Sequence record: KP682392.1
DNA: 64,000 bases
Strand: one strand, 5' to 3'
DNA from: Escherichia phage PA52
The stretch's first letter is position 1. Each line of letters begins with the position of its first letter. Positions 48,001 to 51,000 of the stretch are shown here, piece by piece. The position numbers were made by a program.

Positions 48001-51000
48001 GGTCCTGGTTATTAATACATCAGTATATGATTAGTTGAAGCGAGTCTTTAATATTCATTTAAAATGTCTAAAAAGATGTATTATTAAAAAGTTTAGCGTG
48101 TTATCTGAATACAGGATATCTTAAATGAAGAGTATAGCAACACTGGTTGTGTGTGCAATCTCCGGGATTGCCTGTGTAAATTTATCTGCACATGCAGCAG
48201 AAGGAGAGCATACAATTTCTCTGGGGTATGCGCACTTTCAGTTTCCGGGACTGAAGGATTTTGTAAAGGATGCGACTGCTCATAACAGGGAGACTTTCAG
48301 TCATTTCGTCAACAGAAACTACTTTTCTTCATTGGGCGAATATACAGATGGTCGGGTCAGTGGATATGAAGGCAAGGATAAAAATCCACAGGGCATTAAT
48401 ATCAGGTATCGCTACGAGATAACGGATGATTTTGGCGTTATCACCTCTTTTACATGGACGCGTTCTCTCACTAACTCACAGACATTTATTGATGTGCAGT
48501 CAGCCGATCATACCAGGAAGATTAAGAATCCGGCAGCTTCTGCCAGAACGGATATCAGGGCGAATTACTGGAGTCTGTTAGCGGGGCCTTCATGGCGGGT
48601 TAATCAGTACATGAGTTTATATGCGATGGCAGGGATGGGCGTTGCTAAAGTTAGCGCTGACCTGAAAATTAAGGACAATATTAACAGTAGTGGCGGATTT
48701 TCTGAAAGCAACAGCACGAAAAAAACCTCCCTTGCGTGGGCTGCAGGTGCACAGTTTAACCTGAATGAGAGTGTTACACTGGATGTGGCTTACGAAGGTT
48801 CCGGCTCTGGCGACTGGCGCACGAGTGGCGTTACTGCTGGCATTGGCCTGAAATTCTGACCTGTATCCGGTAACCGTTTACTACCCGCTGTGATGGCGGG
48901 TTTTTTATTGCCCGTACAGGGCAAAAACCGTAAATTATGCGTGGGTGCCTTTCGGCTGATGGCTGGAGGGTGAACCTGAAGGCCTGATGTGGAAAGGCCC
49001 CGAGTCAACTTAACGTTAACCCGAGGCCCTAACACTTCGTACCTTAAGCAAGTAGAAGGTTAGCGCCTCTCTGTAAAAGGAGTCAAGCGCTATGTCGCAA
49101 AAATCGCTTATCACCGTCACAATTTGCATGACGGTTATCTTCACCATCTGGATGTTGCACGGTTCACTGTGTGAGTTCCGGCTGAATTTGTGGGGAGCGG
49201 AGTTTGCGGCGTTCTTACAGTGTAAGCAGTAGGAAAACCGCGACGGGGACGAGAGTCCCCGTCAACTGGTTGCTGAGGTTCAGCCGATATGGCACCCGTT
49301 TCAGGTGAGAGAATGAACGATAAAATTCTCTGGTATATGCAGCGTGTTGTGAGAAATTCCCGCAACCCTGAATTTATGAATGAAGTTAAAGACGCCTGCC
49401 TTAAAAAGCAGGCGTTTTGTTTTGAGGCACCTGATGGCTTTTTGGTGCTGCGTTCTGTGCTCAGTGCTGATGGTATCCCTTATGTTCTGGTGTTGCTGGG
49501 CGTGTGTACGGGGAGTAACAGCGTTGAGCGTTACCTGCCGGAGGTGAAGACATTAACCCATCTGGCTGGCGGACGCTGGGCTGAGTTCCATACGGCAAGG
49601 CGGGGATTTATCCGGCTGGGAAAACGACTGGGCTTTGAGCGAATGCCGGATGATGAGGATGGCTTCATGGTGTTCAGGATAGCGGTCTGACTGCTACAGT
49701 TTTCATCATTGTGTTTAAACCAACATTGTAATTCACATTCTGACCCTGCTCCGGCAGGGTTTTTTGTTATCCAGGGGGCCATTATGGGTGGAAGTAAAGG
49801 CGGTGGTGATACCAAAGTAAAACCAACAGCAGCGCAAATAGCACAGGAAGAAGTGGCCTGGAAAGGGTGGCAGGATTACAAAAATATCCTCCGCCCGGCT
49901 GAAGATAACTTCATGGAAAAGGTCGATGACCTGAACAGTGAGCAGCAGTACGACAATATTGCTGGCACCACAAATCTGGGGTATCAGAAACAGTTTGGCG
50001 AAGCACGGAAGGAGCTTGCGGGTAATCTTGCTCAGTCCGGCGTTGACCCATCCAGTGGTCGTTTTAATGCGGTAATGAATGCGAACCAGAGTGACCAGGT
50101 AACCGGGCAGATTGACACAACCACACGGGGGCAGGTATCGCAGGCAGATAAGTATGTTGCCGGGCTACAGGATGTTGCTGCTCTCGGTTCTGGTCAGAAG
50201 GCGGATGCGTTACAGAGTTTTAACTCTCTGGCAGACAGCAGTCTGGCAAAAGCTAAATCGGATGCACAGGCGGCGTTTACGAAACAGCAGGGGCGAGCCT
50301 CTCTTGTTGGCGCTGGTCTGGGTGCGGCAGGTGCATATGCGATGCATAAGGCTGGCGGTAGCGGAGGAAGTGGCGGTGCTAAAACACCTGGCACCGGCGC
50401 TAATGCCATTCAGCATCAGGCTCAGAACTGGAGACTGTAATTATGGAGTATGGCAAATACGAAACTCTCGCAAGGGCTGGTTATTCAGGAGCAGACCGCC
50501 CACAGGGTGACTGGCAGACGTCAGCAGCGCTGACACGCCAACAATACGACGACTGGCGAACCAGATATTTGCCCCGCGTGGCAAGGCTGGCTGACCTTGG
50601 GGAGAACAACAGTCTGATGAATGCACAGCTTGCACGGGTGGGAGGCCTTGCCACTTCCAGTCTCCGTACAGCGCAGATGGCGCAGGATAACCAGATGGCG
50701 AGATACGGGGTAAACCGCCCGGATAATCCCGACAGTAATACGCTGGGGTTACGTAATGCCCTGGCAATTGCTGGCGCGAAAAATGGTATCCGTGAAGCCG
50801 AACAGGATCGCCAGATGAATATTCTGACGGGGGCTTCTGCACCGGCAAGACAGAAACTGAGTGTTGGCGGCCAACTGGTGGCAGCGTAAGGGGGCAATAT
50901 GGGATACGGTTTACTGGATATTGCAAATCAGTCGCGGCGTGAGGCATTACAGGGAATAAGTGACGCAGACAGACGACGTGAAGAAATTGAGGCTGCGAAC

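Follow-up and report, generated by a model that had tools for sequence, protein, structure and literature searches.

A hok/sok-type locus beside lom in Escherichia phage PA52, probably an intact module of a mok-less regulatory variant with a known toxin

Judged from its sequence, the segment 48908-49297 of Escherichia phage PA52 (sequence record KP682392.1) forms a compact hok-type unit of ~390 nt beside lom, with an intact Hok/Gef toxin gene. The analysis covered a stretch of 64,000 nucleotides from this phage (hereafter the window), and positions are given in its numbering unless another record is named. The reading that we prefer, with a probability of about 0.6, is that the segment is an intact and self-contained hok/sok-type module, a moron (a gene cassette of prophages that is transcribed on its own) lying just after the lom terminator, and that it belongs to a prophage- and island-borne subfamily (Hok 'cluster 72') which works without a conserved mok frame. 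The locus would then probably represent a known toxin in an undescribed, mok-less regulatory variant. An earlier note, made from the sequence alone, had proposed a diverged hok/sok-type type I toxin-antitoxin locus at this place, and the analysis supported it; of the two fates offered there for the copy, decay or translation straight from its own AAGGAG, direct translation appeared to be the better reading.

The toxin gene and its annotation

The 46-aa peptide matched the Pfam model HOK_GEF (PF01848) over residues 8-44 with 33.2 bits (E 4e-8), the gathering cut-off being 22. The open reading frame (ORF) carries the signature SLCE.R....E.AAF described in the earlier note, and both Hok cysteines, C27 and C44, are encoded. 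The hydrophobic N-terminal helix LITVTICMTVIFTIWML, SLCE (with C27), and QCKQ (with C44) were invariant or nearly invariant in 29 relatives. The best NCBIfam model was HokA (NF007290), but its 38.4 bits lay under the cut-off of 89, so the peptide is no HokA equivalog; the generic Hok subfamily model NF007279 gave 22.7 bits against a cut-off of 73.

The toxin is not new, as it has already been annotated, catalogued, and reported to be toxic, and its toxicity rests on a preprint by Escalera-Maurer et al. (bioRxiv, 10.1101/2025.08.07.668861). In the available part of this preprint, the peptide is found without any difference as entry 72_1589, which falls in a 'high-abundance' cluster at 60% identity and whose clone is pAZ3::72_1589; the form of the toxin from P2 prophages is entry 72_1621, and a Shine-Dalgarno (SD) sequence (GGAGG) is recorded for the identical peptide in Table S2. 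In the arabinose-induction assay reported there, 42 of 45 Hok homologs were toxic, and 72_1589 is not among the three given as non-toxic (19_179, 60_1482, and 69_1540). A toxicity check, which the earlier note had suggested, has in effect been run in this way, as far as that part of the preprint tells. Mok, Sok, and mRNA structure were deliberately placed outside its scope, and coding sequences alone were analysed.

Window 48860-49310 was 100% identical to prophage Sp5 of the Sakai strain (NC_002695.2 1292387-1292837). In the Sakai reference NC_002695.2, the 429-nt gap between lom (ECs_1236) and ECs_1237 (window 48860-49288; NC_002695.2 1292387-1292815) contained zero features. The earlier remark that the ORF was missing from the ORF track is plausible on this ground, probably because the Sakai reference omits the gene. 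Newer annotations name the toxin 'Hok/Gef family protein' (PGAP, WP_000078907.1), and the names 'MokW-like host killing', 'small toxic polypeptide', and 'prophage host toxic membrane protein' are also in use.

The same prophage carries another locus of this type at 62 kb. Primers YO-349 and YO-350 of Takada et al. (2021; PMC8621323) matched window 62180-62210 and 61833-61857, and the 51-aa HokW mapped to the same place. Because the published primers map there, the 62-kb locus (window 61892-62216, minus strand) is the published hokW-sokW, identity of the 49-kb locus with hokW-sokW was rejected, and the 49-kb locus is a second locus in the same prophage. In the Sakai reference, hokW is annotated only as a 70-codon form (ECs_1245, 'regulatory protein MokC for HokC'). 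Nor is the 49-kb locus the HokST system of Salmonella (PMC4366850), which sits on plasmid pCol1B9.

Absence of a conserved leader frame

In plasmid R1, whose hok/sok system is the paradigm, Hok is made only if mok is translated at least as far as the hok SD (PMC9841398). We examined the sequence upstream of the toxin in the window, in an alignment of 18 relatives (from Stx phages, P2-like and lambdoid prophages, the O157 island, Salmonella, Citrobacter, and E. albertii), and in a larger sample of 51 distinct modules that included a pattern scan of IMG/VR. At the window locus, the toxin frame is closed upstream by stops at 49053 and 49074, and no frame opened by ATG, GTG, TTG, CTG, or ATH reaches the hok SD or start. 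An in-frame stop was present 18-39 nt 5' of the toxin ATG in 18/18 relatives, and in 15 of these it was located at 30 nt, as the TAG in the invariant GGTTAGCGCC. The 18 aligned relatives had no common upstream frame reaching the SD. In the larger sample, 31 of the 51 modules were without an ATG, GTG, or TTG frame starting in the sokT region and reaching the hok SD, and in most of the others the frame opens with a TTG that has no SD and is tied to a single loop variant. By these comparisons, the family has no conserved leader frame of the mok type. The earlier note had stated that the upstream frame was destroyed in this copy; there is indeed no mok-type frame at the canonical position, but the lack is common to all 18 relatives and does not mark this copy. 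Literature searches for hok loci without mok returned nothing relevant; the paper on T1TAdb speaks of leader frames solely in annotated cases, and the older subscription literature on chromosomal hok loci lay outside the search.

Two other short frames were considered and set aside. In modules with a CUUGAC target loop (e.g. L002, L016, L019, and L021), a TTG located mostly 46 nt (47 nt in one variant) before the ATG opens an out-of-frame ORF of 15-59 codons, which runs through the toxin SD and start and begins at about the position of the mok start of classical loci. This UUG frame at -46 reached the hok start in 14 of 51 variants; it is SD-less and absent in the window, and it was treated as sporadic. 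We also rejected a mini-frame of three codons that opens with GUG and closes at the UAG in GGUUAG. It occurs in 13 of 18 relatives, but neither the window nor the Stx-phage type has it; no SD precedes it, and its position falls within the discriminator of the antisense promoter.

A relocated leader frame might replace mok. Ribosomes would start at AUG 48987 or GUG 48989 behind GAAGG and melt the SD hairpin, coupled initiation would follow at the hok AUG 29 nt downstream, and Sok would act by blocking this frame. Such a frame does exist in the window. It comprises 24 codons from GUG 48989, in the conserved AUGUG (48987-48991), across the whole antisense target to a UAG at 49061-63, whose bases are the first of the SD hairpin, so that it ends exactly at the 5' arm of that hairpin and 29 nt before the hok ATG. 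The frame opened by AUG45 or GUG47 was found in 15 of 18 relatives and in 33 of 39 distinct 5' untranslated regions (UTRs), with ends ranging from 16 nt before the arm to beyond the hok AUG; start usage flips where indels shift the frame, and a start-less control frame was open in just 9 of 39. However, arbitrary frame pairs reached the same point of the SD hairpin in 31-32 of the 39 UTRs, and the excess is within chance for related sequences. Six of the 39 variants have an intact toxin without the frame, and 5 further UTRs are without the AUGUG start motif. The start sits within the 5' hairpin, which is conserved, and pairing with tac restricts the motif; hokW has no equivalent start. Furthermore, mok stops upstream of the hok SD abolish Hok in R1 (PMC9841398), and here the stop lies 16 nt before GGAG. 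On these counts the 24-codon frame is no more conserved than chance; it stands as a rival to the reading we prefer and not as a finding, and we consider it unlikely that it takes the place of mok.

Predicted structure of the sense mRNA

The leader (48943-49105, plus strand) matched the Rfam sok model RF01794 with 35.6 bits (E 6e-5), under the gathering score of 59. Seven relatives scored 31-53.5 bits, all below 59, and the matches in all 8 members start exactly at GGGUGCC. The same model gave 113.5 bits at 62042-62216 on the minus strand, in the 62-kb locus. The homology between the two loci that the earlier note had pointed out is borne out by these matches, although they are distinct loci.

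We analyzed the folding of the predicted hok-type mRNA. The RNA 48943-49300 had a fold z-score of -6.5 against shuffles, with its 5' end paired with its 3' end. Computationally, the tac/fbi-like duplex between GGGUGCCUUUCGGCUGA and UCAGCCGAUAUGGCACCC reached -30.9 kcal/mol in the window; across the 18 relatives, the 5'-3' duplex was present in every case with -23 to -31 kcal/mol, as compared with -16 to -21 kcal/mol for the best alternative segment of that RNA, and the Citrobacter and S. diarizonae copies showed two-sided changes in it. This end-paired layout corresponds to the tac/fbi arrangement of hok mRNAs (PMC9841398). The consensus fold pairs the 5' end locally with GUGGAAAGGCCCC (helix 1) instead of with the fbi-like element. 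The predicted sense -10 lies 7 nt 5' of G48943, and a TA.A.T-type -10 was found at an equal distance in 18/18 relatives, whatever the upstream context. Helices 5 and 6, formed by the downstream box over the start codon, were paired in 99.4% and 94.4% of cells, respectively; their changes were mostly one-sided, with one pair two-sided. In the 3' stem-loop (49236-49271), four pairs changed on both sides across the relatives. By analogy with the R1 hok mRNA, this stem-loop is likely to be the stop point for 3' trimming.

Two further hairpins were predicted in the leader. The antisense-target (sokT-like) hairpin was predicted in 18/18 relatives with -16.5 to -22 kcal/mol, its apical part having an identity of 0.68. 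The SD trap (UAGCGC/GCGCUA plus CUCY/GGAG) was predicted in 17 of 18 relatives with -10.5 to -17 kcal/mol, with a conserved stem and a variable loop, and the S. diarizonae copy has a shorter and weaker one (-5.8 kcal/mol). The two hairpins are predicted to be mutually exclusive because both use UAGCGCCUC. The thermodynamic probability of an unpaired SD was 0.00-0.02 in the full-length RNA, 0.00-0.29 after 3' trimming, and 0.00-0.02 when the trimmed RNA had its antisense target blocked. The S. diarizonae outlier gave 0.27, 0.35, and 0.26, respectively.

The antisense RNA

The minus-strand sequence TTGACT-18-TAACCT, which the earlier note had placed over the toxin SD as a promoter, was found there as a promoter-like site, with its -35 overlapping the GGAG (49079-82) by 2 nt. 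It matches at 8 of 12 positions and was left unflagged by a generic promoter scan. TAACCT was invariant in 18/18 relatives, and all of them have a -35-like hexamer 17-18 nt upstream. The TAACCT segment was the most conserved part of the module (0.99 pairwise identity, as compared with 0.78 for the coding sequence). The same hexamer serves as the sokW -10 (compared with window 62084-89), which primer YO-421 changed from TAACCT to GAGCCG in the 'pro-less' construct (PMC8621323).

A 73-nt minus-strand RNA from near 49050 folded with -36 kcal/mol (z = -5.1). The stem described earlier as 11 bp with three G-U pairs is real but longer, at 15-16 bp including 4 G.U pairs. Contrary to the earlier claim, folding is not confined to the minus-strand RNA, since the plus strand gives a weaker, interrupted hairpin (-11.9 vs -26.1 kcal/mol on the minus strand). 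The antisense hairpin was stronger on the minus strand in 18/18 relatives (mean -23.4 vs -13.5 kcal/mol) because of 2-4 G.U pairs. It occurs with two apical sequence types, and pairing is kept in both. Variation was concentrated in the complement of the antisense 5' tail, the apical part of the target hairpin (49034-49058), with 0.68 identity, whereas the adjacent 49059-49069 had 0.99. Such a variable recognition region fits specific, non-cross-reacting pairs and would insulate co-resident copies from each other's antitoxin. The 49-kb locus probably encodes a Sok-like antisense RNA, as far as sequence can tell. RNA-seq and Ribo-seq data of EDL933 (PMC5331693) were dropped as expression evidence, as the Rfam 'sok' copies with reads were unmappable to the subfamily and position 1480784 of CP008957 is ureF.

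It could also be argued that the toxin is functional and is controlled by mRNA folding alone, that the minus-strand RNA is not made usefully, and that its conservation is a by-product of constraint on the sense RNA. The incomplete match of the promoter, which escaped the scan, and the lack of a proper U tract after the hairpin agree with this, and the TAACCT segment doubles as the 3' arm in two hairpins of the sense strand, another possible cause of its conservation. However, the minus-strand hairpin is more stable throughout by ~10 kcal/mol, through G.U pairs that are A.C mismatches on the sense strand, and the -35-like hexamer keeps its distance in all relatives. At sokW, a functional RNA is detected from the homologous TAACCT promoter (PMC8621323), and the variability centres on the recognition region, as it does for specific antisense pairs. 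Control by folding alone is therefore very unlikely in our judgement.

Distribution, selection, and module behaviour

The module was present in 197 phage records at 80-100% identity. Among 5426 complete E. coli genomes, 1750 had a match and at least 1697 had a near-full-length copy. The places in these genomes number 2,864 or more, with up to nine in one genome. In the ~80%-identity class, homology was confined to window 48923-49297, that is, to the predicted transcription unit. The module follows lom in Stx podophages and ogr at the end of P2-like prophages (L011-L013, L018, and L021), and it was also found between the tail-tip gene J and a tail-fibre gene in a lambdoid prophage (L015), and beside the gene of a type B L31 paralog in the O157 urease island (L014 and L020). 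The ~375-nt module thus occupies four or more unrelated surroundings, and its homology stops at the predicted transcript borders, which is how a mobile moron behaves.

Protein relatives were nearly all 46 aa long and came from Escherichia, Shigella, and Salmonella, and the genomic loci added Citrobacter and E. albertii. A scan of species-representative genomes gave 7 loci, three of them probably on contaminant contigs. Copies were seen in Xanthomonas pisi DSM 18956 (L004, an 857-bp contig), a Planococcaceae metagenome-assembled genome (L005), and Vagococcus sp. WN89Y (L007), and one short contig among these encodes a toxin whose best segment, residues 1-43, is 100% identical. In these unrelated taxa, contamination of the assemblies with E. 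coli or Salmonella DNA is the most likely source of the copies. Some family members lie beside small RNAs: STnc540 (185.7 bits) adjoins the S. diarizonae copy (L010 2809-2995, minus strand), and STAXI (134 bits) and a sub-threshold EFASI match adjoin the O157 island copy (L014 4558-4709 and 5185-5338, plus strand).

We also determined the ratio of nonsynonymous to synonymous substitution rates (dN/dS) of the toxin gene. In 15 aligned 46-codon genes, the median pairwise value was 0.31, and 83 of 83 pairs were below 1. The copy of phage Stx2a_F723 differed from the window by synonymous changes only (dS 0.2). Of the 51 distinct modules, 47 have an ORF of 46 aa, two have one of 47 aa, and two have a frameshifted one of 44 aa. 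Single copies do decay: those in O121 RM8352 (L016) and the Stx2a phage Stx2_481 (L025) have extra G residues in the GGGG run at 49192-49195, which shift the frame to a 44-aa product without AEFAAFLQCKQ; the close relatives Lyz12581Vzw and SW07163 are intact, and a homopolymer sequencing error is a possible cause. These comparisons indicate that the toxin frame is under purifying selection, a pattern unlike that of a decaying gene. The decay suggested in the earlier note finds no support in this low dN/dS, the nearly constant ORF length, the conserved RNA elements, and the large number of genomes carrying the module.

The same data bear on the idea of a silent relic, in which the toxin frame is intact, the mRNA became untranslatable after the loss of mok, and the locus persists by hitch-hiking with prophages. 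In favour of a relic, there is no mok, the SD was predicted to stay almost wholly trapped in each state, and some copies have the GGGG-run frameshifts. In addition, according to the available part of the preprint (10.1101/2025.08.07.668861), earlier work had found the chromosomal hokA, hokB, and hokC unable to mediate post-segregational killing and suggested that they are inactive, which also counts against a working module at 49 kb. On the other hand, many synonymous changes have accumulated while the protein is conserved, and the ORF length is kept across genera. The promoters, the tac/fbi pair, and the anti-SD and antisense hairpins are conserved, the antisense -10 more so than the coding sequence, and for a toxin that cannot be translated, an antitoxin promoter and an SD trap would be superfluous. 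The module moreover spreads as a discrete unit into new contexts. A silent relic is accordingly an improbable explanation.

Proposed mode of action

For the intact, mok-less module that we prefer, we infer the following sequence of events. A weak constitutive promoter would give an mRNA of ~355 nt whose tac-like 5' end pairs with its fbi-like 3' end. This full-length mRNA would be silent, with its SD held in the anti-SD hairpin and its start codon held by the downstream box. Slow 3' trimming to the 3' stem-loop would strip the fbi-like element, and the 5' end would refold locally. After trimming, GAGGCCCUAAC would pair with GUUAGCGCCUC to form the antisense-target hairpin, which competes with the SD hairpin, and ribosomes could then initiate directly at AAGGAG-N9-AUG and produce the 46-aa membrane toxin. 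The antisense RNA of ~60 nt from the TAACCT promoter would pair with 48991-49050, and RNase III cleavage would be expected. This pairing would also free UAGCGCCUC, so that the SD hairpin could re-form and translation would be switched off. Both transcripts and their ends, the 3' processing, the RNase III cleavage, the hairpin switch, and direct translation are all predicted steps at the 49-kb locus.

Several points weigh against this reading. In the consensus fold, 96.9% of cells were paired, as compared with ~40% in slid controls, and its 14 two-sided pairs were reached by 0 of 500 shuffles, but the structure was scored on the very alignment from which it was derived. Most SD-hairpin stems and the sokT base are invariant, so they offer no covariation evidence. 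The rise in SD accessibility after trimming is small; its direction fits most relatives, but when applied to hokW the method does not recover its known dependence on mok, so it carries little weight. Both the sense and the antisense promoter lie under the threshold of a generic sigma-70 scan, and just three U follow the antisense hairpin, which a terminator scan left unflagged, so that termination there is uncertain. The frameshifts described above affect some Stx2a phage copies. The papers searched yielded no transcript, 5'- or 3'-end, or translation data for the 49-kb locus. Finally, the predicted antisense RNA covers neither the SD nor the AUG, and with no mok present its effect on translation must therefore be indirect.

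Comparison with known systems

The closest system for comparison is hokW-sokW (PMC8621323; 61892-62216, minus strand). Both loci lie in the same prophage and have the same layout, with a Hok-family toxin and a leader that matches sok, a 5' GGGUGC... paired with a 3' ...GCACCC, an antisense promoter (predicted at 49 kb) with the identical -10 TAACCT, and the SD in a UAGCC./.GGCUA hairpin. However, HokW has 51 aa and is 37% identical to the 46-aa toxin over 35 aa, and hokW has an in-frame 70-codon mok from 62104 whereas the 49-kb locus has none. The antisense 5' tails of the two loci are unrelated in pairwise alignment, and cross-regulation between them is therefore unlikely. The Tyr46 codon of hokW reads UAC-G, while the 46-aa toxin has a hard-coded Cys at the equivalent position; the UAC-G Tyr motif is linked to TadA A-to-I editing in the available part of the preprint (10.1101/2025.08.07.668861). 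The hokW-sokW system has been tested experimentally, whereas the 49-kb locus is known from its sequence.

With R1 hok/sok (PMC9841398), the 49-kb locus shares a full-length mRNA that would be locked by tac/fbi pairing, a cis-antisense RNA (predicted at 49 kb) to the leader upstream of the hok SD, a predicted target hairpin, and a Cys...Cys membrane toxin. In R1, however, mok is mandatory and Sok acts on the mok start region, while the 49-kb family has no conserved leader frame; 3' processing and RNase III cleavage have been shown for R1 and would only be expected here. As a system, the 49-kb locus has the predicted tac/fbi pairing and probably the antisense RNA, but neither a mok frame nor a score above the curated Rfam threshold. 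Its peptide is 72_1589 of cluster 72, and both cysteines are encoded as in HokA, so no editing would be needed, following the available part of the preprint (10.1101/2025.08.07.668861). K-12 hokA differs in having an annotated in-frame mokA.

Systems without a leader frame occur outside the Hok family and are working precedents for control without mok. In aapA/IsoA of Helicobacter pylori, which has no leader frame, the full-length mRNA is silenced by the pairing of its 5' and 3' ends and becomes active once its 3' end has been trimmed, but its toxins and RNAs are unrelated to those of the 49-kb locus, and IsoA overlaps the toxin ORF, which the antisense RNA predicted here does not. The tisB/istR-1 system of E. 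coli likewise has no leader frame, and its antisense RNA binds well upstream of the start site; its toxins and RNAs are also unrelated to the 49-kb locus.

We tentatively extend this reading to the whole of cluster 72, which is present in Salmonella and in roughly one in three complete E. coli genomes. It may be a natural hok/sok lineage that has dispensed with mok, in which the toxin is translated directly and the Sok-like RNA acts as a conformational switch that closes the SD hairpin via UAGCGCCUC, alongside RNase III cleavage. If this were true, leader-frame coupling would not be essential to the hok/sok logic, and Sp5 would hold a second, orthogonal killer module that may mask single-deletion phenotypes. 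Functional work on a Hok system of an Stx phage is limited to one study, in which hokW-sokW alone was deleted, with a ~two-fold effect on phage release (PMC8621323); because the sequence is identical in the Sakai Sp5 reference, the hokW-sokW mutant would still carry the 49-kb locus. Coupling of translation to mok is treated as a hallmark of hok/sok, and a large, selected subfamily without a conserved leader offers a natural experiment on antisense control. The Sakai Sp5 reference omits the gene and Rfam sok misses the subfamily at its curated threshold, so surveys that rely on them under-count type I toxins in Stx phages. The basic picture is unchanged, as the locus belongs to a well-known toxin family. 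It is an ordinary gene with a mildly surprising regulatory design, whose practical relevance is that it resides in the prophage that defined hokW-sokW function.

Feature coordinates and neighbouring sequence

Table 1. Features of the 49-kb locus and its upstream border, in window numbering
Feature	Position	Strand	Basis or remark
lom	48125-48859		annotated, Ail/Lom family
Intrinsic terminator of lom, upstream border of the module	48883..48907	+	stem-loop and T run, terminator scan
Predicted promoter of the hok-like mRNA	48908..48936	+	TTGCCC (48908-13), 17-nt spacer, TAAATT (48931-36), directly after the lom terminator
Predicted full-length hok-type mRNA, ~355 nt	48943..49297	+	fold, Rfam match starts, homology borders
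tac-like 5' element GGGUGCCUUUCGGCUGA	48943..48959	+	pairs with the 3' fbi-like element or with a local partner at ~48989-49001
Upstream 24-codon GTG frame VERPRVNLTLTRGPNTSYLKQVEG (then stop), status doubtful	48989..49063	+	preceded by GAAGG
Predicted Sok-like antisense RNA, ~60 nt	48991..49050	-	single-stranded 5' tail, 15-16-bp hairpin (49030->48994), then CCUUUCC
Predicted antisense-target (sokT-like) hairpin, base GAGGC.CUAAC/GUUAG.GCCUC, variable apical stem-loop	49023..49069	+	consensus helix 4
Predicted Sok promoter	49057..49086	-	-35 TTGACT (49086->49081), 18-nt spacer, -10 TAACCT (49062->49057)
Predicted SD-sequestering hairpin, UAGCGC/GCGCUA	49061..49092	+	with anti-SD CUCU (49069-72) on GGAG (49079-82)
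SD sequence AAGGAG	49077..49082	+	sequence; 9 nt 5' of the toxin ATG
Toxin gene, 46-aa Hok/Gef peptide MSQKSLITVTICMTVIFTIWMLHGSLCEFRLNLWGAEFAAFLQCKQ	49092..49232 (with stop codon)	+	ORF and Pfam match
Predicted downstream box UUUGCGGCGU (F-A-A-F codons)	49203..49212	+	consensus helices 5 and 6; pairs with AUGUCGCAAA (49092-49101) over the start codon
Predicted 3' stem-loop AACCG / GACGGGGAC-GAGA-GUCCCCGUC / UGGUU	49236..49271	+	consensus helices 13 and 14
fbi-like 3' element UCAGCCGAUAUGGCACCC	49280..49297	+	complementary to the 5' end

Downstream of the module, the annotated ORF of 133 aa (49289-49690) has its ATG at 49289, within the fbi-like element (AUGGCACCC). A terminator-like hairpin was flagged on both strands at 49392-49415, ~100 nt into this ORF, and the plus strand near 49392 reads GCCTGC...GCAGGC and then GTTTTGTTTTG, up to 49425. 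The annotated start of the 133-aa ORF may be wrong, or the hairpin at 49392-49425 may be the end of the hok-type transcript in this phage.

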